A program made the translations under genes and the position numbers. A stretch of 64,000 bases of DNA, from NCBI GenBank assembly GCA_965220745.1, contig CBDCQT010000010.1, positions 64,001 to 128,000 of the forward strand, in the 5' to 3' direction. This DNA comes from Alphaproteobacteria bacterium (GTDB lineage: Bacteria > Pseudomonadota > Alphaproteobacteria > UBA828). Below the pieces are notes generated by a model, which had not been told where the DNA came from, searched no databases, and saw only the letters and a program-made list of their open reading frames with translations. Positions 17,443 through 53,377 of this stretch are shown in pieces (position 1 is the stretch's first letter; the number at the start of each line of letters is the position of its first letter).

Positions 17443-17523
17443 TCGCGATCGGGCCAGGCTTCACGGCTCTGGTTTCACACATAATGTCACTCTATTATAT
17501 GTGATGAAATATGAGGTCGGGTC

Positions 17524-17874
17524 ATGCAGTTCCAGGATTTCGTCGCGGATCAGGTATTCTCGCCAACTCTGATTGCGGACGAGCTGCGCACCACCAAGGC
17601 CGAGATCGCCGGCACCCTGGGCCTCGGCAAGGACGCGTTCACCCGCACCTCGCGCGTCCGGGCACGCAAGACCCAGGTTCGTCTTCGCCAGATGCTAGAG
17701 ATTCTCAACCGCGTCGAGGCCGCGACCGGATCGCCGATTGCGGCCTATGCCTGGTTCCGCGCCGAGCCGCTGCCGGGCTTCGGCGGCGCCACGCCGGACC
17801 AGTTGGTGCGCGAGGGCAGAGCCGAGCACGTGCACGCGTATCTCGACCGGATCGCGGCAGGCGGTTACGCCTGA
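17524..17874 (+). CDS. Xre/MbcA/ParS-type antitoxin
   Basis: N-terminal HTH plus 'AYAWFRAEPLPGFGGATPDQLV' C-terminal motif; directly upstream of a RES gene. Confidence 0.88.
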   Translation: MQFQDFVADQVFSPTLIADELRTTKAEIAGTLGLGKDAFTRTSRVRARKTQVRLRQMLEILNRVEAATGSPIAAYAWFRAEPLPGFGGATPDQLVREGRAEHVHAYLDRIAAGGYA

Positions 17875-23892: not shown

Positions 23893-24249
23893 TCACGAGC
23901 CGTCGTCTTCGAGCAACCGGGCCAGCATGTGCCGCACGTGATCCTGCCCGCCGAAGAACACCGCCAGGATACGGACCGTCTCGTTCGCCTCGTCCACGTC
24001 GAACCAATAGATCGCCCGACCGATCGCCAGGTGCCGTGCGCCGGACAGGATATCGTCGTGGCGTTCGCCCCGGTGAGGTGCGGTTGGGATGCGCTCCGCC
24101 TCGGAACGAATTTCCAGCACCCGAGCCGCCGCGTGATCGAACGCACTCTCCGGGCTTTCGCCGAAGTCGAGGTAGCTGCGCAGGAGGTGGTCGAAGATCA
24201 GACCGAAGTCGCGTTCGGCCTCGGCCGAGAACTCAAGACGAAAGGCCAT
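23893..24249 (-). CDS. RelE/ParE-family toxin
   Basis: 'FRLEFSAEAERDFGLI...VRILAVFFGGQD'; overlaps upstream antitoxin. Confidence 0.85.
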   Translation of the reverse strand: MAFRLEFSAEAERDFGLIFDHLLRSYLDFGESPESAFDHAAARVLEIRSEAERIPTAPHRGERHDDILSGARHLAIGRAIYWFDVDEANETVRILAVFFGGQDHVRHMLARLLEDDGS

Positions 24250-24508
24250 GCGCTCGGCGCTTGTCGGCAATCATCGCTTTCAGCCGCGCGTCCATCTCTT
24301 CCGCGCCGACGAACGCGCCCTCGCGGCGGCGCGCGAGGAGCGCACGCAGCGCCGTGGTTTCCGCTTCCTCCGCGTCCATCCGCTGGCGCAGCAGGTCGAC
24401 GCCTTGCTGCAGGACCGCGCTGACACTGGCGTAGCGCCCGGCCTCGACCAGCGCCCTGGCAAAGGCGTGCTGCTCGTCGGTGAGAGAGATCGAGGATTTG
24501 ACCGTCAC
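24233..24508 (-). CDS. ParD-like ribbon-helix-helix antitoxin
   Basis: 'SISLTDEQHAFARALVEAGRYASVSAVLQ' ParD/CC2985-type motif. Confidence 0.88.
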   Translation of the reverse strand: MTVKSSISLTDEQHAFARALVEAGRYASVSAVLQQGVDLLRQRMDAEEAETTALRALLARRREGAFVGAEEMDARLKAMIADKRRAHGLSS

Positions 24509-24527
24509 GGGAGCCTCCTTGACGCAA

Positions 24528-24538
24528 GAGTATTACTC
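24528..24538. promoter_or_regulatory. Probable antitoxin operator palindrome
   Basis: GAGTA-T-TACTC, 20 bp upstream of the parD-like start. Confidence 0.5.
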
Positions 24539-25959: not shown

Positions 25960-27774
25960 TCAGTTGTCACGAGATAGATATTCTACTATCTCCTCCATAA
26001 GCGGTTGAAAGTTTGTCATTCTCCTCCTAAACTTCTCTGGCTCCCACTGACAGATATGGCGGGCAATTTGGGCTTTTGCCGGTTGGGTGAACCTATTCAG
26101 CACAAATACAGACCAGTCTTCGCTCAAATGTTCTCGCAATTCTGTATCCCCGAGCAGTATTTTCTGGGCCAAATCCGTTCGAATAACGTTACCCAACTCA
26201 CGCTCCTCCAGCTTGTCGTTCTTCCTAGCCCATTCCCATACCTTTCGATCATACATCAACTCAAGATCCGTTTCTATCTTGAACCCCGCAGCCCGCGCTT
26301 TTCTAACATTTCGAGTTTCTGGCAACCTAAAGCACTTCGCGTATTTGATTCGATTTGGTTCCGCGTTAAATTCCTTCTGGTGCTTAACGGCGTCTTTATC
26401 AGCGTCCACCAACCCTGCGCAGCGCGGAAGTTCCGTTCCATGCTTTGCTTCATAGCACCAACTACTTAGCATATCGATCACGTACCGATAGCCACCGCCA
26501 CTGCTCTTAGTCTCTACTATTATGTTGTCTGATTCATCCGGGCAAAACATTTCCAAAGCACGCTCGACAATCATTTTGTCCGAAGGACCTTCGACGAAGA
26601 GTACGTGACGTCCTTCATGTACCAACATCCTTGCATTGGCTCTAGACTCTTCCAATCGCCTGATCCTTAGTTCCAATTGGTGTACTAGCGGCGCGACTAG
26701 AGCGGTTGTTCCCATTCTATCATCCAAGTCGTCAGAGGCAGACTTACATTGACTGCCCTCCTCTTCCTTGTCCTTAAAGACGTGGTGGTTAGCAACTTCT
26801 TCGTGCTTCTGCTTCTCTCCTCGATGCAAATTGTAGAAGACTGGTGAGTGGGTTGTAAGAAATATTTGACAAATTCCATGATCTAAAAAGTCGCAGAACT
26901 GATCCGCCAACTCTACACATCCGGAAAATTCAAGATTGTTCTCTGGTTCCTCATATCCCCAGATAAAGCTATGTGGCGGAGCTCCATGGTGTTGAAGTCC
27001 ACGTTTCTTGTCAGCAATAAACTTCAGGATGATGGGGATATGTCTAGCCTTGATTCCGTCTCCGCGAGCGTCAAGAGAAATATCCTGCTCGTCGGTGAGA
27101 AAATCCAGACTCTCGAAAACATGGCTAAGGTCCCTCGGCAAGGCTAGTCGAGATGTGAAGCCCATTGTTTCAGTTATTTCGTCCGTTAGGTCGCTAAGGT
27201 GAGTAGCGATCGAACTTTCGAACTCCTGGCTGGACTTGCGAAATGTGCGAGCGGCTTCTGATATAGCCCCAAAAATACTAGCACGGAGGTGAGCGATGTA
27301 GTTTCGATCCTTAATGGCCGGTACATACATAAACGTGATATTTCTTAGCAGTGCGTGGACATTGGAGTTGTCCGGAATCGGCACTTGGGTTGACTTTATC
27401 GTGCCATTTCGACCAATACTTATTCTCTTTCCAAAGTAGTGACTCTTATGAAGACCATTTTTTCTCCATGATTTTTTCCAAACAATGAAATCTCCATTGG
27501 TCTTTGTGTAGGTTTTTGGAAGAGCGATAGTCAACGCTATTACAATTTCCTTGGCCCTTCGGTTAGGCTTATTGAATGTATTGTGATCGTCTTCAAATAC
27601 TAGGTGTCGGTGGGGGTCAGTTTCTTCATTAAAGAATAGATTTAGTGCCCGGAGAATATTGGATTTTCCGGAGTCATTTTTCCCGACAAACACGGTTAGC
27701 TGTGTCGAAGATAAGCGCATGTGGCGTATGGAGCGAAAGTTGGTTACTTCAATTTCGGTAATGGAGAGAGCCAT
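25960..27774 (-). CDS. OLD-family ABC-ATPase + TOPRIM nuclease (AT-rich, likely acquired, possible anti-phage)
   Basis: Walker A GKNDSGKS, Walker B 'WGYEEPENNL', H-loop 'LTTHSP', TOPRIM 'LFVEGPSD' and 'VDAD'; visibly much more AT-rich than flanks. Confidence 0.8.
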   Translation of the reverse strand: MALSITEIEVTNFRSIRHMRLSSTQLTVFVGKNDSGKSNILRALNLFFNEETDPHRHLVFEDDHNTFNKPNRRAKEIVIALTIALPKTYTKTNGDFIVWKKSWRKNGLHKSHYFGKRISIGRNGTIKSTQVPIPDNSNVHALLRNITFMYVPAIKDRNYIAHLRASIFGAISEAARTFRKSSQEFESSIATHLSDLTDEITETMGFTSRLALPRDLSHVFESLDFLTDEQDISLDARGDGIKARHIPIILKFIADKKRGLQHHGAPPHSFIWGYEEPENNLEFSGCVELADQFCDFLDHGICQIFLTTHSPVFYNLHRGEKQKHEEVANHHVFKDKEEEGSQCKSASDDLDDRMGTTALVAPLVHQLELRIRRLEESRANARMLVHEGRHVLFVEGPSDKMIVERALEMFCPDESDNIIVETKSSGGGYRYVIDMLSSWCYEAKHGTELPRCAGLVDADKDAVKHQKEFNAEPNRIKYAKCFRLPETRNVRKARAAGFKIETDLELMYDRKVWEWARKNDKLEERELGNVIRTDLAQKILLGDTELREHLSEDWSVFVLNRFTQPAKAQIARHICQWEPEKFRRRMTNFQPLMEEIVEYLSRDN

Positions 27775-28133
27775 GGCGCACCTTAGTCGATTGAGTTTAG
27801 AGTTGCGGAGACGGTAGGAAGGCAGTGAAGCACCGTGGGCAAGGGGCGAAAGCAGGACTTGTCTGAGGAGCTGTGCGTCTAGATGGTGTGTTTAGGTGAT
27901 GGCTTCGCGCGAGGATCACGAAAGGGGTGGGGGAATTGTGGGCAAAGTTTGTCTGAGGGTGGGTATGTGGGCGACTCGTCGCGGTAGGGATAGAATATCA
28001 GATCAACGCCGTTTGCGCCCCACCTGTCCGTTGACGAGGGAATTATCTCGAAGCACCAACCGGTTGATTTCGAGCAGCGAAACCCGGGAGCGTAGAGAAG
28101 AAGAAGGTCAGAGCGGCGATTTTCCCAATTCTT

Positions 28134-28187
28134 CCGGACCATGGTGCGGTGCACGACGCGCCGGGGCCGTGACAGGATCCCGCCATG
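28134..28187 (+). promoter_or_regulatory. Putative Mor/C-type activator-dependent leaderless promoter, copy D (orphan)
   Basis: CCGGACCATGGTGCGG (28134-28149) + N23 + CAGGAT (28173-28178) + N6 + ATG (28185); same spacing as three copies before phage-derived genes. Confidence 0.6.
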
Positions 28188-32474: not shown

Positions 32475-32861
32475 TCAGGCGCCCCCTCCCAGTAGATGTG
32501 CGTTGATCTGATCGAGCTGCTTGTCGAGCCCGGCGATCATCTTGTCCATGCCGTCGAGGGTCGCGCGGAGCGCCGCGATCTCCCCCTGAACCGCCGTGAC
32601 AGAGCGTCCGAGAGTTGCGAACTCACGGGCGTCGGGAAGGGATTCGAGCGCGGTGGAGAGCTTGACCAGACCGCGCTCGACGGTCTCCATGCGCGCGCCC
32701 AGGGCGCCGACGCCGGTGTCGCGCCTCTCCAGGTCGCTGACGCTCTTGGTGGTAACGGCGCCGGCGGATTCGAGCCGGCGCACGCGCACGAAGAGGCCGA
32801 CGCAGGCGGCGACGATGGCGCCGACCACGCCGCGCGCGACCCACGTCTCGAGATCGCTCAT
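32475..32861 (-). CDS. Mu-like gp25/DUF2730-type membrane-anchored coiled-coil protein
   Basis: N-terminal TM, 'LESLPDAREF...VQGEIAAL...LDQINAHLL' pattern; ATGA-coupled to the holin. Confidence 0.6.
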   Translation of the reverse strand: MSDLETWVARGVVGAIVAACVGLFVRVRRLESAGAVTTKSVSDLERRDTGVGALGARMETVERGLVKLSTALESLPDAREFATLGRSVTAVQGEIAALRATLDGMDKMIAGLDKQLDQINAHLLGGGA

Positions 32862-33388
32862 CGACCGGCCGCCCCGCCCTCGCGCGAACGCCGCTTCTCG
32901 ATCTGACGGGCGCCGAACCACCAGAGCATCGCGGCGGTGAAGAGATAGAGCACGGTCTCGACGATGCGGGGCCGGAGGCTTACGGCCGCGAGATCGGAGG
33001 CGCCGAGCAGGAAGTAGATCGCGCCCACGAGGGCGAAGAGGCTCCAGGTGAGCGCCGGCCGCGTGAGGCCCCGCACCACGTCGACGAGCTGCATGGCCCA
33101 GCCCTCGCCGGGTTTGGACCAGCGCCGGGCGGCTTCGCGGTAGGAAGCCTCCATGGCCTCCCACTCGGCCCGCTCGCGGGTGGCCTGAGCCTCGATGGCG
33201 GCATGGGCGGCCGCACCCTCTGCCTCGGCCTTGGCGAGCTCGATGTCGAGACGGCGCAGGTCCAGCTCCTGGGCGTGCCGCTGGCGCGACTGGAAGAAGT
33301 CGACCACGGCCGACAGCGCCGTGCCGAGCAGCCCGGTTGCGCCGCCGGTGAGCACCGAGACGCCGAAGTTGAAAAGCGTTTCAAGCAT
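32858..33388 (-). CDS. Putative holin (3-TM GTA-holin-like)
   Basis: N-terminal hydrophobic helix, coiled coil, 'VRGLTRPALTW...WWFGAR' motif; coupled to endolysin candidate. Confidence 0.65.
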   Translation of the reverse strand: MLETLFNFGVSVLTGGATGLLGTALSAVVDFFQSRQRHAQELDLRRLDIELAKAEAEGAAAHAAIEAQATRERAEWEAMEASYREAARRWSKPGEGWAMQLVDVVRGLTRPALTWSLFALVGAIYFLLGASDLAAVSLRPRIVETVLYLFTAAMLWWFGARQIEKRRSREGGAAGR

Positions 33389-33854
33389 GGGACTCTCCTA
33401 TGCGCCCTACCGCTTCGCTACTTGAGGGCGGGTTGATCTCCAGTTCGAAGGGTTGGTCCGCGGCCCAGTCCATGAGGTGGCGGAAGGCCGTGCGCGAGGC
33501 GAGCACCGCCACCTGCTGGCGCCCCTTCACGCTCAACCGCCCCCGGCGGAGACCGGGGAGCAGGCAGCCCTGGGTGTGGGTATGCCAGCCGCGCTCGACG
33601 TCGCCGCCGAGATTGCCGGCGTGGAAGAGGATGTAGCTGCGGCCCGGTACCTGAGTCACCAGCAGGCAGCGCCGGTGGCGCGGCGAAAGGTGCGGCACCA
33701 CCTCGTAGAGCCCGGCCGGGATGCAGGAGCGGTTGCGCCGGTTGCCGCGCCAGGGCGGTTCCATGATCCAGGTGGGCGAGAGGCCGGGGCCGCTCAGGAC
33801 CCCGAGTGTGCCCTGGTCGCTTTCGTGCCGCCGTGTGAGGGTCGCCCGTTGCAT
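33381..33854 (-). CDS. DUF5675-type phage protein, putative endolysin (peptidase)
   Basis: 'GTLGVL..MEPPW..N....SCIPAGLY...VPGRSYILFHAGN......TQGCLLPG'; start reassigned to ATG at 33854. Confidence 0.75.
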   Translation of the reverse strand: MQRATLTRRHESDQGTLGVLSGPGLSPTWIMEPPWRGNRRNRSCIPAGLYEVVPHLSPRHRRCLLVTQVPGRSYILFHAGNLGGDVERGWHTHTQGCLLPGLRRGRLSVKGRQQVAVLASRTAFRHLMDWAADQPFELEINPPSSSEAVGRIGESHA

Positions 33855-33905
33855 GGGGCGATCATGGCGGGGTGCGCCCCGCCCGTGCACCGCACCATGG
33901 TCCGG
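33852..33905 (-). promoter_or_regulatory. Putative Mor/C-type leaderless late promoter, copy A (lysis cassette)
   Basis: Minus strand: CCGGACCATGGTGCGG (33905-33890) + N23 + CATGAT + N6 + ATG (33854). Confidence 0.75.
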
Positions 33906-33937
33906 GTTCTACCGACCGCGTGCGCGTCGCCTTGCGG

Positions 33938-34480
33938 TCAGTCTACCAACCACTTCTTGCGCCAGAACTCGATCGCGTTGAGCGCCATGGTCGGGCCGAT
34001 AAGGTCGGGTGAGGCGCCGAGCGCCATGCGGCGCGGCGGGGGCGTGTCCGCGCCTTCCCAGGGTAACGGGCCCTCCCAGACGATCTTGTTCTCGATCGCG
34101 TAGAGCGCACAGTCGGGCCGCGCGGCGGGGTAAGCCTTCGCAACAGCCTCGCGGCACTGCTTGAGCGCCCGGTGCTCGTATTGGACATCCCTGATCGGCC
34201 CGGCCCAGATGTGGTCGAGGAGATGGCAGCCGCCTGTCGCGCAATAGACGTACCAGCCGCCCCGCCCGTTGCGGTCGAGCGCGAGCACGGCGTAGCCGCC
34301 GGGCCGCGCATGGCGCAGGTAGTCGCCCCACCACGCCGTGAACCAGGCGGGCGCACCGGCATGCAGCGCATCCGCGGAGGCTGCGGTGGCGCGAATCTTG
34401 TGGCCCTCGACGTGCGTGATCGGCGTGCAGGCGGCGAGCGCGACGGCCGCCAGAACGCCGATCAGAGCTGCGCGGCGCAT
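33938..34480 (-). CDS. Lipoprotein of unknown function, coupled to the repressor gene
   Basis: MRRAALIGVLAAVALAA|C lipobox; ATG overlaps repressor stop (TGATG). Confidence 0.7.
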   Translation of the reverse strand: MRRAALIGVLAAVALAACTPITHVEGHKIRATAASADALHAGAPAWFTAWWGDYLRHARPGGYAVLALDRNGRGGWYVYCATGGCHLLDHIWAGPIRDVQYEHRALKQCREAVAKAYPAARPDCALYAIENKIVWEGPLPWEGADTPPPRRMALGASPDLIGPTMALNAIEFWRKKWLVD

Positions 34481-35382
34481 CACTCGAAGGTGCGAGAGGC
34501 CCAGCGCACCTCGCCGATCACCTCCGCCTCCCGCGGCCACGGCACCGGCTGCCAGGACGGGTGATCGCTCGCGAGGAACCATTGCCGGCCGCGCCGCTCC
34601 AGCCGCTTCACGACCAGGCCCTCGCCGGTGGTGACCACGAAGATGCGCCCGGAACGGCGGCGGGTGCGGTCGCGGTCCACCAGGATCTTGGAGCCGGCCG
34701 GCAGCGTGGGCTCCATCGACTCGCCCCGCACCGAAATCACCACGCAGCGCGTCGGGTCGATGCCTTGGCCATCGAGCCAGTCACGGCGGAACCAGACCGG
34801 ACCCTTGACCGGTGCATCGTCGAGATTGACCGTGCCGCCGCCTGCCGCCGCTGCGACCTCGCGCGTCCCCACCGAGCGCGCGCCGGGCGGCACGCCGTTC
34901 TCGTTCGCTGCAGCGACCGGCCGGGCGTCGGAGTCGGTGAAGCCCGCCACAGGGGGCGCGCCCAGCTCCTCCGGGATCGGGTCGCCGCCAGCGTCTGCGA
35001 CGAGCCCCACCAGCGCCCGGACCGGCCCCTCCAGGCTGAATATCGGCACCGCCGGCGGGGCTGCCGGCAATGCACCGCCCCACTCCGTACCCGTCAATTC
35101 CGACAGTGCTCCCGCTCCCCCCAGGCCGACCTCGTCGTCCTCATCGTTGGCGCGCGCATCGGCAGGCGGACCGATCGAAAGTGTGAGCCCGAGCGCAGCA
35201 CAGATCTCGGCCGCGCGGTCCACCGAGGGCGCCTGTTGGCGGGTCGGGTCCAGAATTCCCCGCAGCGTCCAGGGCCGGAGCCCGCGGGCCGCCTCGAAGC
35301 GCCGCGCGCCCACGCCGGCGGCCGCCAGCGCCTCGCGCACGGCACGGCGGATCTGCTCGCTCGGTCGAGTCGATTCGTTCAT
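34480..35382 (-). CDS. CI-like repressor with HTH and S24 autopeptidase domain
   Basis: N-terminal HTH ('PSVDRAAEICAALG'), A-G site 'AAAAGGG', catalytic 'VRGESMEP' Ser and 'LVVKRL' Lys; TATATT-N6-ATG suggests a leaderless start at 35382. Confidence 0.88.
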   Translation of the reverse strand: MNESTRPSEQIRRAVREALAAAGVGARRFEAARGLRPWTLRGILDPTRQQAPSVDRAAEICAALGLTLSIGPPADARANDEDDEVGLGGAGALSELTGTEWGGALPAAPPAVPIFSLEGPVRALVGLVADAGGDPIPEELGAPPVAGFTDSDARPVAAANENGVPPGARSVGTREVAAAAGGGTVNLDDAPVKGPVWFRRDWLDGQGIDPTRCVVISVRGESMEPTLPAGSKILVDRDRTRRRSGRIFVVTTGEGLVVKRLERRGRQWFLASDHPSWQPVPWPREAEVIGEVRWASRTFE

Positions 35383-35456
35383 GTGCACAATATAGCACAA
35401 ACGGTTGTGCATAAAAGTGCTTGATATCGTCATGTGTGATCGTGCATATATGTCTT
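35383..35456. promoter_or_regulatory. Divergent cI/cro promoter-operator region
   Basis: AT-rich gap with dyad GCACAA-ACGG-TTGTGC (35395-35410), further TGCAC/GTGCA half-sites, and TTGATA -35-like at 35421. Confidence 0.7.
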
Positions 35457-35708
35457 ATGGTGCACAGTGACCAACTGCTCGTTACCCTCATCCACGCCTT
35501 TGCGGACGCCCGCAGCCTCTCCGTCTCCTACGCGTCGCGCCTCTTGACCGGCAGCGGCGACACGGTCGACCGCGTCACCGCCGGCGCGAGCATCACCGCG
35601 CGCCGTGCCGAGACCATCCTCCGCCGCGCCTCGCAGAACTGGCCCGCCGATCGCGCCTGGCCGGCGGACATTCCCCGCCCCGCGCCCGCGCCGAAAACCA
35701 ATAAGTAA
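35457..35708 (+). CDS. Cro-like small DNA-binding protein
   Basis: 83 aa, divergent from repressor, C-terminal 'NWPADRAWPADIPRP' motif typical of alphaproteobacterial prophage Cro-like proteins. Confidence 0.7.
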   Translation: MVHSDQLLVTLIHAFADARSLSVSYASRLLTGSGDTVDRVTAGASITARRAETILRRASQNWPADRAWPADIPRPAPAPKTNK

Positions 35709-35730
35709 TGGATTTGAAAGGGAGAACCCA

Positions 35731-36276
35731 ATGGCCGGAACCCATGCGCCACCAGTGACCTCTATGGAGGACATCGTCGCCTTCGCCCGGAGCTTCGCCG
35801 CTGCGCGGGCGACGACCGAGGCGCTGGCCGAAGACATCAAGGCGTTGCAACGCAAGGCCCTGGCTGGCCGGCTTCGTGCGCTGCGTAACCGCATTGCCGA
35901 GCAGTCGGCATCCGAAGACGCGCTGCGCACCGCAATCCTGGCCCGGCCGGACCTCTTCGTCAGCCCGCGCACGATTACGGTGGACGGCATCAGGCTCGGG
36001 CTCCGCAAGCAGCCCGGCGCCATTTCGCTGGACGACGAGGCGCTGACCATCGAGCGGCTGCGCGCGCGCTTTCCAGACCAAGCCGAGGCGCTGATCCGGG
36101 TCAAGGAGACGCTCGACCGCAGCGCGCTCCGCAAGCTCCCTGCGGGCGAGCTCGCGCAGATCGGCGTCACCATCGCGAAGGCGTCCGACGAAGTGACCAT
36201 TGTCGCCGCGCAAGGCGATCTCGACCGCATCGTCGCCGCCTTGCTGGACGACCACGCACCGGCGGAGGCGGCATGA
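35731..36276 (+). CDS. Mu Gam-like host-nuclease inhibitor
   Basis: Coiled coil then 'PDLFVSPRTITVDGIRLGLRKQPG...LIRVKETLDRSAL...LAQIGV'; SD GGAG upstream. Confidence 0.75.
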   Translation: MAGTHAPPVTSMEDIVAFARSFAAARATTEALAEDIKALQRKALAGRLRALRNRIAEQSASEDALRTAILARPDLFVSPRTITVDGIRLGLRKQPGAISLDDEALTIERLRARFPDQAEALIRVKETLDRSALRKLPAGELAQIGVTIAKASDEVTIVAAQGDLDRIVAALLDDHAPAEAA

Positions 36277-36902
36277 GGAGCGGACGCCAGCGCACCATGC
36301 GGCGGGAGGAGGCGCGGCCGGCGGCAGTGCCGGGCGCCCGCGCCCGCGCCGAGCGGCTGTGGGACGAAACGATCGTGCAGCCCTACGCAGCCGAGAGCGA
36401 TGCGAGCGAATCAAACGGCGCTCCCCTCCCTTCCGGGCCGGCGACGCGCAAGCTGCGGGCGCTCTGGCACAGCGCGTACCACCTGGGCCTGATCCACGAC
36501 CGCTCGGACGACGCGCTCGGTGCTTGGCTCCGTCGCCTCGCGCACCTCGATGGGAACGCCTGCGCCGAACCGGCCCGCCTCGACCGCCCCATCCAGGCAC
36601 TCAAGGCCTGGCTCGCGCGCGGCGCCGGGGTGGACTGGCGGCCGCACGTCTCCCTCGGGCAGGACGGGCGGGTGCGGGAGACGCGCCGCCCGCGGGCGCG
36701 CGTTCTGGAGGCGCAGTGGCGCCTGCTGCATCGCCAGGGGCGGGTGCGGATCGGAAGTGACGCGGCTCTCGGCGCCTACGCCGCCCGCCTTGTCGGCCTG
36801 GGCCGCACTGATTCGCATCTCGCTCTCAGCAACGCTCAGACCGATGCCCTGATCCGCCACTTCGGCAAGTGCATCCGCGCGGCGAGCGAACGCCATGACT
36901 GA
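36273..36902 (+). CDS. Mu gp16/GemA-like (DUF1018) protein, atypical N-terminus
   Basis: 'RKLRALWHSAYHLGLIHDRSDDALGAWLRR...IQALKAWLAR' GemA C-terminal pattern. Confidence 0.7.
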   Translation: MRSGRQRTMRREEARPAAVPGARARAERLWDETIVQPYAAESDASESNGAPLPSGPATRKLRALWHSAYHLGLIHDRSDDALGAWLRRLAHLDGNACAEPARLDRPIQALKAWLARGAGVDWRPHVSLGQDGRVRETRRPRARVLEAQWRLLHRQGRVRIGSDAALGAYAARLVGLGRTDSHLALSNAQTDALIRHFGKCIRAASERHD

Positions 36903-37242
36903 TGCCGCGCCTCTCCCCGGCGTGCTGGAGGAGATTGCGGATATCGCGGGCAGGCCGACGGCGATCGCGATGGCGCTGGCCTGGGGCGGGCGGGAGGTTC
37001 ACATCCCCAAACCGCGCTATCTGGCGCGACACCCCGACCACCCCCTCGCCCGCCTGCTGGAGGCCGAGGGGACCGCGTTCCAGGTCGCCGACTATCTCGG
37101 CGGTTCCGGCGTCTACCTGCCGCGGGCGCGCCGTGCCTGCGCCGTCCACCTCGCCGCCGCCGGCGCGACCGCCGTCGAGATCGCGGCGCGCCTCTCCCTC
37201 TCCCCCAGCGCGGCGCGGCGCTACATCAGGGGCGTGTCCTGA
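36895..37242 (+). CDS. Mor/C-family transcription activator
   Basis: 'LPGVLEEIADIAG...AWGGREVHIP...HPLARLL...GGSGVYLP' plus C-terminal HTH 'AVEIAARLSLSPSAARRY'; follows gemA as in Mu-like phages. Confidence 0.72.
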   Translation: MTDAAPLPGVLEEIADIAGRPTAIAMALAWGGREVHIPKPRYLARHPDHPLARLLEAEGTAFQVADYLGGSGVYLPRARRACAVHLAAAGATAVEIAARLSLSPSAARRYIRGVS

Positions 37243-37456: not shown

Positions 37457-37951
37457 ATGTCCCAGACATTGCACCCCACGAAGATCGACATTGCCGACAA
37501 CACGCGTGCCGCGATGGTCGCGCTGCTCAACGCCCGCCTGGCTGACGCGGTGGACCTCGCCACCCAGATGAAGCAGGCCCATTGGAACGTGAAGGGCCCC
37601 TCCTTCATCGCGCTGCACGAGCTCTTCGACGCGATCCACGTGGCGGTTCAGGGCCATGTCGACAACCTCGCGGAGCGCATTACGGTGCTGGGCGGCACCG
37701 CGCGGGGAACTGCGGCCGTGGCCGCGGCGGCCTCAGGGCTCCCCGCCTATCCGCTGGAGATCACGGCGGGCACCGACCACGTGGAGGCCGTGAGCGTGGC
37801 GCTGGCCACCTTCGGCAAGGGCATCCGCGCCGCCATCGCCGAAGCGGGCGATGCCGGTGATGCCGACACCGAGGACCTGTTCGTCGAGGTCTCGCGCGAC
37901 ATCGACAAGAACCTCTGGCTGGTCGAGGCCCACGCCCAGGCGCAACGCTAG
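37457..37951 (+). CDS. dps: DNA protection during starvation protein Dps
   Basis: 'KQAHWNVKGPSFIALHELFD', 'DNLAERI', 'DKNLWLVEAH'. Confidence 0.95.
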   Translation: MSQTLHPTKIDIADNTRAAMVALLNARLADAVDLATQMKQAHWNVKGPSFIALHELFDAIHVAVQGHVDNLAERITVLGGTARGTAAVAAAASGLPAYPLEITAGTDHVEAVSVALATFGKGIRAAIAEAGDAGDADTEDLFVEVSRDIDKNLWLVEAHAQAQR

Positions 37952-50585: not shown

Positions 50586-51755
50586 CTAGTGAATGCCGAG
50601 CTTCTCCGCAGCCATCTGCGTTCCCTTGATGCGGGACTCGATCTTCTGGAACGCCACGTCGCGGGCGTAATCGGGCGAGCCGTGGTTGGGCTTCACGTCG
50701 ATGCTGAAGGGCGAGAAGCCGCAGTCGTCGGTAGACGCAATCTGCTCCTTCGGCAGGTGATTGGCGGCCGCGATGAGCTGCTCGCACACCTCTTCGGGCG
50801 ATTCCACCCGCGGGTTCTGCGGGTTGATGACGCCGATGTAGGCCATCTGCGTGACGCCGTTGGCGTCGGTGCGGATGCTCGCCGCGATGTCCTTGTAGAC
50901 CTGCTCCTGGTTCCGCTCGCTCTTGAACTGGATCATGAAATAGCCGGCATTGAGCTGGAACATGCTCGGCAGCAGGTCGTTGTAGGGCACGTCGGCGCTG
51001 TGCACCGAATCGCAGTCGCCGCCCGGGCAGGTGTGGATGCCGATGTTCACCCGCTCCTCCGCCGTGAAGCGGTCGAGCACCGCGTTGATCAGATCGATGA
51101 AGTGGGGAAGCATCTGGCGGCCGGTCCAGGGATTGCGCGAATCGTTGCGGCAGGAGAGCCGGCCCTCGGTGAAGTCGATGGAGACCCGTACCGCGCCGGC
51201 AGCGAAGGCCTCGCGCACGTCCTTCTCGCACTCGTCGATCAGGTCGGCCTCGAACGCCTCGCGCGAGTAGCCCTCGATCTCCTCGTCGAGGGGGTAGAGC
51301 AGCGCGAGCATCGAGGGCGCGATCACCGCCTGCTTCATCGGCTTGGTCGCGGACTTGATCGAGAGCTTGAGGGAATCGGCCGCGAAGCTCTTGTAGCGGA
51401 ACGGGCCGCCGGTGAGACGCGGCAGCTGGCGATGGTGGCCATCGGCGAAGATGGCGAAGTACTGGCCGCCGCCCGCAAGATGGTCGGCGAGGCCCGTTCC
51501 CGCCAGGGTGTCGGTGATGGGATAGGTGGCGAAGCTCGACCAGCGTTGCTCTCCGTCGGAGACGATAGGCGAGCCGGCGGCCTCCATGCGCGAAATCGAA
51601 TCGCGCACCGCCTCCTCCTGCTCGGCCTCGAGATCGGCTTTCGAAATGTCGCCCGCATCGTAGGCGGCGTAGGCGGCCTGAAGCTTGGACGGGCGGGGCA
51701 GCGAGCCCACGGGTTCGGTCGGAATTCCGGTGGCAGTACGGGGATCGTAGGTCAT
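50586..51755 (-). CDS. Cobalamin-independent methionine synthase II-family protein (single MetE barrel)
   Basis: 'VGSLPRP', 'SDGEQR', Zn ligands 'HTCPG' and 'DDCGFS'. Confidence 0.85.
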   Translation of the reverse strand: MTYDPRTATGIPTEPVGSLPRPSKLQAAYAAYDAGDISKADLEAEQEEAVRDSISRMEAAGSPIVSDGEQRWSSFATYPITDTLAGTGLADHLAGGGQYFAIFADGHHRQLPRLTGGPFRYKSFAADSLKLSIKSATKPMKQAVIAPSMLALLYPLDEEIEGYSREAFEADLIDECEKDVREAFAAGAVRVSIDFTEGRLSCRNDSRNPWTGRQMLPHFIDLINAVLDRFTAEERVNIGIHTCPGGDCDSVHSADVPYNDLLPSMFQLNAGYFMIQFKSERNQEQVYKDIAASIRTDANGVTQMAYIGVINPQNPRVESPEEVCEQLIAAANHLPKEQIASTDDCGFSPFSIDVKPNHGSPDYARDVAFQKIESRIKGTQMAAEKLGIH

Positions 51756-51861
51756 CGGTCATCTCCCGGTATTCGTTGATGCTTGCCGCCATCGTCCCAT
51801 AGGAGCGGTGCTGCGTTCAACGCATAGGCAGCGCGACGGGACTCGCGCCCGATCGCGTGCC

Positions 51862-51915
51862 CCGCACCTTGGTGCGATGGTCGTTGGCGCCGGGTGCCGT
51901 CATGGTAAGGGCATG
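51862..51915 (+). promoter_or_regulatory. Putative Mor/C-type leaderless late promoter, copy C (terminase)
   Basis: CCGCACCTTGGTGCGA (51862-51877) + N23 + CATGGT (51901-51906) + N6 + ATG (51913). Confidence 0.72.
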
Positions 51916-53289
51916 GTTGGCCCTGCTTCTAGCGAATCGCTCCACCTCTCCCTCCTCCCCTATCAGGCCCGCTGGGTGTCGGACCCGGCAGGTTTCAAGG
52001 TGATCGAAAAGGCGCGGCGCATCGGCATCTCCTGGGCCGAGGCCTACGACGCGGTAATGCACGCGGGCTCGAAATGGGGCGGCAACGTCTATTACCAGGC
52101 CTACAACCTGGAGATGACCCGGGGCTTCATCGAGGACTGCGCCGGCTGGGCAGAGAGGTTGCAGAGCAGGGCCGGTGCGCTCGGCGAGACCTTGATGGTG
52201 GAGGATGGGCGTGCCGTGCGGGCCTTCCGCATCGCCTTCGGCTCAGGCAACGAAATCCTCGCCATGACTTCGGCGCCGCGCGCCTTCCGCTCCAAGGGCC
52301 GGCCCGGCGATCTTGCCATCGTCGACGAAGCGGCCTTCGTCGACGACCTCGGCGAAGTGCTGAAGGCGGCGCTCGCCTTCCGCGTCTGGGGCGGGCGGGC
52401 GCACGTCATCAGCACCCACAACGGCGAGGCCAACCCCTTCGCGACGCTCTGCCGCGAGATCGACGAGGGCGCGCGGCCGGGCACGCTGCACCGCACCACG
52501 CTCAAGGAGGCGCTGGCGCAGGGTCTCTTTCGCCGCATCGTCGAGGGGCAGGGCCGCCCCTGGTCGGCCGCCGCCGAGGCCGAATGGGAGGGCGCGCTCA
52601 GGGCCGAATACGGCAGCCATTCGGGCGAAGAACTCGACTGCATCCCCGCCGCCGGTGGCGGGGCCTGGCTCGCGTGGGAGGCGATCCGCGCCTGCGAAGA
52701 CCCCACCGCAGGCGATCCCGCCGCCTTCGCCGGCGGCGGCGCCACCGTCGGCGTGGACGTGGCGCGGCGGCGTGACCTCTGGGTCGCAGCGGTACTCGAG
52801 CAGGTGGGCGACGTGCTCTGGCTGCGCGAGCTGGCGGTCCGCCAGGGCATCCCCTTCAGCCAGCAGCGGGCGATCGTGGGCGACCTTGCGGCGCGCTATC
52901 GGCCGGTGCGCATCGCCGTGGACCAGACCGGCATGGGAGAGGCCGTGGTGGAGCAGCTGCAGGAAGACCTGGGCCGGACCGCGGTCGAGGGTGTGCTGAT
53001 GTCCGGGCCGCGCAGGCTCGATGTGGCAACGGCGCTGCGCGAGGCGGTGGAGGATCGCCGCCTCCGCATCCCACCCGACGCGGAGCTTAGGCGCGATCTC
53101 CATGCCGTCCGCGCCGAGGCCGGGCCGACCGGGGCGCCGCGGCTGCTTGCCGAACGCTCGGGCACCGACGGCCACGCCGACCGATTCTGGGCTCTGGCGC
53201 TGGCCTGCACCGCCGCCCGCGACGGCAGTGCGACCATTGGGGGTGCCAGCGCCGGCCCGCGCGCTGCTTCGCTTGCGGGGTTCTACTGA
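51913..53289 (+). CDS. Mu gp28-like terminase large subunit
   Basis: 'LLPYQARW...IEKARRIGISWAEA', Walker B 'IVDEAAF', 'ISTHNG', nuclease 'GVDVAR..D', 'DQTGMGE', 'HADRFWALALA'. Confidence 0.9.
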   Translation: MVGPASSESLHLSLLPYQARWVSDPAGFKVIEKARRIGISWAEAYDAVMHAGSKWGGNVYYQAYNLEMTRGFIEDCAGWAERLQSRAGALGETLMVEDGRAVRAFRIAFGSGNEILAMTSAPRAFRSKGRPGDLAIVDEAAFVDDLGEVLKAALAFRVWGGRAHVISTHNGEANPFATLCREIDEGARPGTLHRTTLKEALAQGLFRRIVEGQGRPWSAAAEAEWEGALRAEYGSHSGEELDCIPAAGGGAWLAWEAIRACEDPTAGDPAAFAGGGATVGVDVARRRDLWVAAVLEQVGDVLWLRELAVRQGIPFSQQRAIVGDLAARYRPVRIAVDQTGMGEAVVEQLQEDLGRTAVEGVLMSGPRRLDVATALREAVEDRRLRIPPDAELRRDLHAVRAEAGPTGAPRLLAERSGTDGHADRFWALALACTAARDGSATIGGASAGPRAASLAGFY

Positions 53290-53323: not shown

Positions 53324-53377
53324 CCGCACCATGGTCCGGTGCACAGGCCGGGCCGGAGTCCCGATGATCGGGGCATG
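53324..53377 (+). promoter_or_regulatory. Putative Mor/C-type leaderless late promoter, copy B (portal)
   Basis: CCGCACCATGGTCCGG (53324-53339) + N23 + GATGAT (53363-53368) + N6 + ATG (53375). Confidence 0.75.

Follow-up and report, generated by a model that had tools for sequence, protein, structure and literature searches.

Why would a chromosome keep the control genes of a Mu-like phage, in phage order, without the genes for transposition? The question is raised by a 64-kb window (the whole stretch of DNA analysed here) on contig C10 (CBDCQT010000010.1, positions 64,001 to 128,000) of the 4.8-Mb, 13-contig genome of an alphaproteobacterium assigned to UBA828, in which a repressor gene faces an operon of cro-like, gam, gemA and mor genes (34480..37242). 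Analysis of this genome together with 20 congeners and, for motif counts, 20 genomes of other genera suggests that the five genes are probably the master switch of a Mu-like siphophage derivative that has no transposase, is vertically inherited, occupies several loci and resembles a gene transfer agent (GTA).

The sequence-only reading described the module as an S24 repressor facing a cro-like/gam/gemA/mor operon, and both the open reading frames (ORFs) and the family scores (Pfam with curated cut-offs, plus PHROGs) confirm this. The repressor of 300 amino acids (34480..35382, minus strand; assigned from Pfam, PHROGs, alignment with LexA and orthologues) belongs to the S24 (LexA/CI) type, with 60.4 bits against a cut-off of 23.3 for Peptidase_S24 and an E-value of 1e-26 for phrog_4; its ORF spans 34480..35433, and the start is most likely the methionine at 35382, because 10 orthologues begin there. 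On the plus strand follow genes for a cro-like small protein (35457..35708, with ORF starts at 35421 and 35457), a Mu Gam-like protein (35731..36276), a GemA-family protein (36273..36902) and a Mor/C-family activator of 115 amino acids (36895..37242). The last three assignments, each made from Pfam and PHROGs, survive the profile searches on which they had been made to depend: Phage_Mu_Gam (PF07352) scores 30.4 bits against 28.3 over residues 24-157, with phrog_491 at 1.9e-10; GemA (PF06252) scores 64.2 bits against 27; and Mor (PF08765) scores 27.7 bits against 24.9 over residues 11-42 only, an N-terminal stretch, while phrog_836, annotated as a late transcriptional activator, matches the full length (residues 2-113, 8e-14). 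Most of the 66 homologues of the Mor-like protein carry PF08765, and its predicted structure (predicted local distance difference test score, pLDDT, 92.8) ends in a C-terminal helix-turn-helix (HTH) at residues 79-115. The genome holds a single GemA match and, by tblastn, one Mor/C-family gene; the N-terminal 50 or so residues of GemA differ between species.

Other searches placed the proteins less closely. A profile of 10 Gam sequences found nothing related in the PDB, a GemA profile found no relative among viral contigs, a smaller Mor alignment searched against genome contigs recovered nothing from outside the genus except one doubtful match, and NCBIfam contributed no further family for the island proteins. 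The name cro-like is based on the position of the gene and a weak fold match: the product belongs to phrog_7669 (2e-17), a family without known function, and its model of four helices (pLDDT 83) matches XRE/HipB-type HTH proteins best, only weakly, at E-values of at least 0.9 that are not significant. The spacing of the genes is as first read, with a 22-nt gap between cro-like and gam (35709-35730) that carries a good Shine-Dalgarno sequence, AAGGGAG, 7 nt 5' of the ATG, and with gam/gemA and gemA/mor overlapping by ATGA and ATGACTGA, respectively.

No transposase lies between or near the module genes, as had also been claimed. Filtered tblastn (used instead of tblastx, whose 21,911 low-complexity matches were discarded) with 25 ORF translations from the cro-to-gam interval of two relatives that carry the transposition genes A and B, MuA included, gave no match in the islands of this genome and nine congeners and a single unrelated short match in the genome itself; a Pfam DDE_2 search of this genome gave no match either, and its control was silent too. 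Congener G002 has two related prophages (loci L046/L047 and L051) with transposase genes. In these, about 1.8 kb with small genes separates cro from MuA and MuB, a further 2.2 kb or so lies between MuB and gam, and about 1.7 kb lies between gam and gemA, after which come mor and the lysis genes. A/B-bearing prophages are also present in congener G013, and in phages RS1 and Mwe-Yong1 A and B lie between the cro-like gene or genes and gam or gemA. The possibility that intact relatives natively carry A and B elsewhere was thus looked at and came out negative. Measured against the closest transposable prophages, the deletion amounts to about 6 kb where 22 bp remain between cro and gam, and the genes between gam, gemA and mor are gone as well; among congeners the cro-gam gap ranges from about 20 to about 430 bp. 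By this comparison the transposition genes have apparently been lost, not relocated.

The G002 prophages are related to the element throughout. Their proteins are 37-55% (rep), 38-39% (cro), 56-60% (gam), 48-49% (gemA), 51% (mor), 72% (DUF5675), 64% (holin-like), 68-69% (large terminase, terL), 68% (portal) and 77% (major capsid protein, MCP) identical to those described here, Mor of the A/B-bearing relatives ranging from 45 to 51%, and they share palindromic late-promoter elements with a GGACCATGGTCC core. One of them is likewise two-armed, its head genes lying to the left of the repressor gene. They differ in that MuA and MuB, with about 6 kb of small early genes, still stand between cro and gam, in that extra genes separate gam, gemA and mor, and in that they are contiguous, with a gp27 gene before terL and a 397-residue gene after the portal gene.

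Thirteen of the 20 congeners give long DNA matches to the island, 17 have head-tail genes and 17 have terL/portal genes; G012, G016 and G017 have neither the island nor either set of structural genes. Mapping gene by gene with tblastn in nine congeners that have the island bears out the five-gene order, as had been proposed for checking: lipoprotein gene and rep run leftward, and cro, gam, gemA, mor and the Dps gene rightward, in nine of nine. In eight of these the lysis cassette is to the left of the lipoprotein gene, in G003 it is beyond Dps, and a major facilitator superfamily (MFS) gene flanks the lysis side in five. Ratios of nonsynonymous to synonymous substitution (dN/dS), estimated pairwise by the Nei-Gojobori method for each congener against this genome, are 0.04-0.40 for the five switch genes (rep, 0.12-0.33; cro-like, 0.18-0.38; gam, 0.19-0.37; gemA, 0.23-0.40; mor, 0.04-0.24), and dS across the island, 0.05-0.61, is close to that of the host flanks. 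The holin-like gene (0-0.20), the DUF2730-like gene (0.02-0.19) and the host flank gene Dps (0.02-0.18) are also constrained, as are the structural genes for capsid, portal, terminase and tail, at 0.07-0.53 (MCP, 0.07-0.24; portal, 0.12-0.27; terL, 0.19-0.39). Module and structural genes alike appear, on these estimates, to have been inherited vertically under purifying selection. The suggestion that Gam was kept to protect DNA ends finds no support here, gam being interrupted in one of nine species and gemA lost or interrupted in two of nine.

The repressor retains the sequence features that cleavage would require. The Ala-Gly site and Ser/Lys dyad attributed to it are both present and invariant in 10 of 10 orthologues: Ser222 (GESMEP) and Lys259 (VVKRL) align with the catalytic pair of LexA, 37 residues apart as in LexA, and AAAA/GGG occupies residues 177-183, about 40 residues before Ser222, with AAAG (178-181, containing the Ala-Gly bond) unchanged and residues 177 and 182 variable. 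Among the orthologues, conservation covers residues 1-73 and the S24 domain, and the linker is variable. The genome has a RecA gene, and the repressor may be of the LexA/CI type that cleaves itself on RecA activation.

Between the divergent genes lies a control region of 74 bp (35383..35456, delimited from the sequence and from orthologue alignment) that contains four GTGCA[CT] sites and the dyad operator that had been claimed, a 6-4-6 dyad GCACAAACGGTTGTGC at 35395-35410. The four sites fall within 91 bp, versus 0.057 expected from the 40 sites in the window, and no other 91-bp stretch of the window has more. Ten species share most of the region without change. We read TATATT and ATATAT, 6-8 nt before the two divergent ATGs, as putative -10-like elements. 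A search of the island for the alphaproteobacterial SOS box (GAAC-N7-GAAC) found none.

Candidate outputs of the switch are marked by a 16-mer, CCATGGTGCGGTGCAC. In the lysis promoter-like element P_lys (33855..33907, minus strand), the 16-mer (33885-33900) is followed by an 18-nt spacer, CATGAT (33861-33866), 6 nt and an ATG (33852-33854), which is the start codon, at 33854, of a gene for a DUF5675 protein. Upstream of this gene CCATGGTGCGGTGCAC is invariant in 11 of 11 species, including G003 and G018, whose upstream neighbour differs, and the spacer is variable in sequence and fixed in length. A similar element, CCATGGTCCGGTGCAC, with one mismatch, precedes the portal gene (53329..53377, plus strand) and is found at the same position in six other genomes checked. 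All six genomes in which the lysis, portal and head-protease genes are present together have the 16-mer, with at most one mismatch, in front of each of the three, and G018 has it in front of both operons that are left there. This genome contains 24 exact copies and 39 with at most one mismatch; at most two mismatches yield 58 copies, versus 1 for a reversed control pattern. The 39 copies share a layout of 16-mer, 17-18 nt, CAnnAT, 6 nt and ATG, and in 37 of them the ATG falls at +45 to +47.

If the A of this ATG is the transcript start, the hexamer lies at -12 to -7 and the centre of GGACCA/TGGTGC at -43.5. A dyad at -43.5 and a -10 hexamer without a -35 element plausibly represent the geometry of a Mor-type target, provided that transcripts do start at the conserved ATG. 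At the promoter Pm the Mor dimer of Mu is described as binding the inverted repeats of a 16-bp element whose centre lies at -43.5 (PMC4390567), and the Mu late promoters are described as having -10 hexamers without a typical -35 (PMC2582627). A/B-bearing relatives carry perfect palindromes with the same core, GTTCACGGGACCATGGTCCCGTGAAC and TCAGGGGACCATGGTCCCCTGA, just after mor and before the protease gene, and these are absent from their own rep-cro regions. The motif (at most one mismatch) occurs in 10-66 copies in the 17 element-bearing congeners, in 1, 0 and 1 copies in the three without the element and in 0-1 copies in the 20 genomes of other genera, a correlation that is suggestive only, because related genomes are not independent.

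About nine copies stand in front of paralogous genes for the small terminase, gp27 of Mu (PF11985, 96 bits). Most of these paralogues sit in cassettes of about 1 kb that are 88-92% alike, each with the late promoter element 5' of it and none beside terL; the nine paralogues in this genome include C7:307538-308326, C3:16215-16991, C10:399330-399812, C12:349456-349941 and C13:415167-415652. There are 1-15 gp27 copies in the 17 element-bearing congeners and none in the other three.

The genes that such promoters would serve are dispersed. The large terminase gene terL (51751..53289, plus strand, likely start 51877-51913; Terminase_6C, 73.8 bits), in which conservation begins at LLPYQ and identity is 77-96% in eight congeners, is directly followed by the only Mu-type portal gene of the genome (53428..54666, plus strand; Portal_Mu, 298.6 bits), and 14 kb of ordinary metabolic genes separate mor from this pair. 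Genes for head protease, capsid, tail, tape measure and fibre lie about 86 kb to the left (C10:2-9925 and C13:1-4270), so that the three loci span more than 118 kb of C10 and continue into C13. Scattering is not an assembly artefact, because G004, whose genome is a single contig, has three separate loci at 3.33, 4.98 and 5.00 Mb, 1.65 Mb apart. In G003 the genes are contiguous, from J through capsid, protease, lipoprotein and rep on the leftward arm and from cro through mor, Dps, the lysis genes and gp27 to terL on the rightward arm, with the portal gene on another contig; this two-armed layout is native to the lineage, because in one G002 prophage, too, the head genes lie to the left of the repressor gene.

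The module itself is not free-standing, since the repressor gene is coupled to a lipoprotein gene and then, on the same strand, to a lysis cassette. The lipoprotein gene (orf214, 180 amino acids, 33938..34480, minus strand) is translationally coupled through TGATG, the repressor stop overlapping its ATG (GAG TGA TG CGC...); its start, MRRAALIGVLAAVALAAC, reads to us as a putative lipobox-like signal peptide, and the protein has no family match in Pfam, PHROGs or NCBIfam. A 47-nt gap separates it from the DUF5675 gene (33381..33854, minus strand; 87.6 bits in Pfam), which occupies the endolysin position of related phages; in Mwe-Yong1 a lysozyme gene follows mor. The cassette continues on the minus strand with a holin-like membrane protein (32858..33388; phrog_6637, 1e-21, and a weak match to the holin family phrog_3427) that has three hydrophobic segments, and ends with a DUF2730-like small protein (32475..32840, the start being our reading; phrog_736, 4.5e-7; in Pfam 21.3 bits, under the cut-off of 24.9) that is 82-99% identical in 10 congeners. 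Lysis genes stand at the same place in the A/B-bearing relatives and in phage Mwe-Yong1.

On the other side, the Dps gene (37457..37951, plus strand; Ferritin, 88.8 bits in Pfam) adjoins mor in nine of nine intact islands and is also near the truncated mor of G018. It was considered as a phage-borne gene and rejected as such: Dps belongs to the host, as it is also carried by congeners without the element, at 73-76% identity in two of them. Since the neighbours of Dps in these element-free congeners share no synteny here, the ancestral insertion site could not be fixed.

Taken together, these features would fit the following sequence of events. At rest, the S24 repressor would bind the GTGCA[CT] sites between rep and the cro-like gene and shut off the rightward operon, while the coupled lipoprotein, co-expressed with the repressor, may exclude superinfecting phage. 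On DNA damage, activated RecA would trigger self-cleavage of the repressor at the Ala-Gly bond through Ser222 and Lys259, and cro-like, gam, gemA and mor would then be transcribed and be translated as one coupled unit. A Mor dimer would bind the near-dyad (GTGCCCC)GGACCATGGTGCGGTGCAC centred at -43.5 and recruit RNA polymerase to -10-like promoters without a -35 element. Its target promoters, with predicted transcript starts at the conserved ATG, would be those of the lysis cassette, the portal gene, the head-tail operon and about nine scattered gp27 copies. The earlier description of the module as a streamlined cascade responsive to DNA damage finds partial support in the loss of the transposition genes, purifying selection on the module and the presence of plausible output promoters, while its cleavage and induction steps are predictions.

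Several observations weigh against a functioning switch. The genus is known from metagenome-assembled genomes only. A scan for sigma-70 consensus promoters returned no site, and terL in this genome has no copy of the 16-mer in the right orientation. The Pfam match to Mor is marginal and covers part of the protein only; in a comparison of structures, Mu Mor (1rr7) ranked 32nd against the model with an E-value of 2.1, and in a second fold search it was not among the fold matches listed at Z >= 2. Mu Mor in its crystal form is an intertwined dimer. Parts of the island, in the lysis genes, rep, the control region, gam and gemA, have counterparts 90-97% alike among contigs from one metatranscriptome run; these contigs were rejected as evidence of expression, and we make no claim of transcription, because they stem from relatives in a library that possibly holds DNA. 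Gaps in their coverage carry no information. Decay is also visible. Six of 10 closely examined congeners have one or more broken components: a TniA/TniB-like transposon splits gam in G009; an insertion sequence (IS) interrupts gemA in G006; G020 has no gemA and only partial portal and protease genes; in G008 terL is split; G004 has shortened protease and MCP genes; and G018 lacks the stretch from rep to gemA, the N-terminal 37 residues of Mor, and the head-tail genes as far as J. In this genome terL has no gp27 (small terminase, terS) gene beside it, a MuF-like gene is likewise missing, and no homologue was found of the 397-residue gene that follows the portal gene in an A/B-bearing relative. 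Such features would be expected of an old defective prophage in slow decay, in which the switch is kept only because repressor and lipoprotein confer immunity to, or exclude, related Mu-like phages still active in the genus, and in which the late genes are no longer used jointly, and the same account is favoured by the related A/B-bearing prophages in G002 and G013, by the three congeners without the element and by the lipoprotein gene, which evolves fastest in the island (dN/dS 0.33-0.52), as an arms race would give. We nevertheless consider slow decay unlikely, if the strongest competitor: immunity leaves unexplained the selection on cro-like, gam, gemA and mor (0.04-0.40) and that on capsid, portal, terminase and tail genes elsewhere (0.07-0.53, at dS up to about 0.6), and it does not account for a late promoter element that is unchanged before three separated operons in six of six genomes.

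The other doubt concerns the 16-mer, which might not be the target of Mor and might instead be a genus-specific repeat, akin to miniature inverted-repeat transposable elements or repetitive extragenic palindromes (MITE/REP-like), or a promoter for a host factor, leaving the cascade without a defined output. Most of the 39 copies do not stand before phage genes, about 25 preceding no recognisable phage gene at all, and several lie inside other short repeats; G018 still has 32 copies with its mor truncated; binding of Mor to the 16-mer is a prediction; and the heptamer GGTGCAC is common to the 16-mer and the site where cro starts. That shared heptamer also raised the possibility that the repressor or Cro binds the late motif, which we rejected since the operators and late palindromes of the relatives are unrelated. 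Against a mere repeat or host promoter stand the occurrence of the element at the same three functional positions in all six genomes, the relatives' own palindromic variants, which sit at homologous positions and are absent from their rep-cro operators, the near absence of the motif where the element is absent, in congeners and other genera alike, and a geometry like that described for Mu Pm, with the dyad at -43.5, a -10 hexamer and no -35 (PMC4390567). On this evidence a 16-mer unconnected with Mor seems the least probable of the alternatives, and a Mor-driven regulon under the control of the repressor is the reading that we retain.

Two further candidates were set aside. The 55-nt element as a whole could be a structured RNA, and its outer arms can pair; there is no covariation to test, because the 5' arm never varies, and a promoter is preferred because the spacer is variable with fixed length and is followed by a -10-like hexamer. 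An Rfam P10 match on the island was below threshold and was rejected.

Comparison with known systems places the element between several of them. In phage Mu, too, the repressor gene diverges from the early operon, the Gam, GemA and Mor families occur in identical order, and an activator dyad at -43.5 is described upstream of a -10 hexamer without a -35 element (PMC4390567, PMC2582627). The present element differs in that A and B are absent, in that its late genes are spread over three loci and in that its repressor appears to be of the S24 autocleaving type; there is probably one activation step, not two as in Mu, because only one Mor/C-family gene was found. The control region of Mu reads c, ner, A, B, ..., gam, ..., gemA, mor, with Mor acting at Pm and C at the late promoters, and its c repressor is not known to be of the S24 autocleaving type. 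The GTA of Rhodobacter capsulatus (RcGTA) has an HK97-type ancestry and is controlled by the host regulators CtrA/GafA. It resembles the element in having phage-derived structural and lysis genes at several chromosomal loci and in vertical inheritance, whereas the portal, protease and capsid described here are of Mu type, the system is known from its genes alone, and control appears to lie with its own repressor and Mor and not with host CtrA/GafA. The concept of a GTA with a multi-locus 'genome' has been put forward for RcGTA (PMC5026251). In both cases the loci together extend too far for one head. The pyocin regulators PrtR and PrtN of Pseudomonas aeruginosa offer a third parallel, as a RecA-sensitive S24-type repressor holds down the activator of a domesticated phage apparatus and its lysis genes. 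The logic of repressor, activator and late genes is the same, whereas the activator here is of the Mor/C family, a Pfam scan finding no PrtN family, and heads, portal and terminase are kept; because they are retained, the product would be a DNA-packaging particle, not a tail-only bacteriocin.

Some further observations accompany these results. The insertion in gam of G009 (L016:9928-14337) is 4.4 kb long and encodes a DDE transposase, a TniB-like ATPase and a further ATPase, that in gemA of G006 (L018:14683-15985) is a 1.3-kb IS with a 419-residue transposase, and in G018 (L023:13224-14318) a low-GC gene of 364 residues, by eye resembling a RelA/SpoT-type nucleotidyltransferase, lies between Dps and the truncated mor. 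A degenerate motif, CCAAGGTGCGGGGCAC, is found at the 5' end of terL in the opposite orientation (51857-51872, minus strand) and at the same place in G004 and G014, a clade in which no rightly oriented copy precedes terL. One motif copy lies at 28139-28154 (plus strand) of the window, and about 35 others genome-wide stand in front of short or absent ORFs; extra copies often lie beside other repeats of about 100 nt. Some stand 5' of host genes, among them one that is 358 nt upstream of groES (C10:679408). A repeat of about 100 nt in the head-protease region of this genome's own C10 (L028:9137-9253) recurs with 88-96% identity at many places in several congeners, and the terL reading frame of G003 matches it over the N-terminal 40 residues. 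Elsewhere in the window, GC content falls to 47% at 26001-28000, versus about 68-70% for the genome, and antitoxin-type genes encode an Xre/MbcA/ParS C-terminal domain (17515-17871) and a ParD-like protein (24236-24532).

Known gene transfer agents derive from a handful of phage types, and the best-studied one is under host regulators. A search of literature listings and the openings of abstracts found no Mu-derived GTA and no conserved transposase-less Mu-like element. The boldest version of our proposal, which we regard as rather unlikely in its full extent, is an undescribed GTA from a Mu-type phage, in which an SOS-sensitive repressor and one Mor run about 40 late promoters, and in which the 1-15 gp27 copies per genome are packaging starts for headful packaging at many chromosomal sites. 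Should the element be a decaying prophage instead, it would show a phage regulon surviving dispersal across a chromosome. If the proposal is true, it would be a Mu-type GTA that keeps the phage's own damage-sensing switch, having lost the genes for replication and transposition. The wiring would be simple and testable, with a single repressor, a single activator and a single 16-nt site, and the amplified gp27 genes with their promoter copies suggest a testable way in which host DNA may be chosen for packaging.

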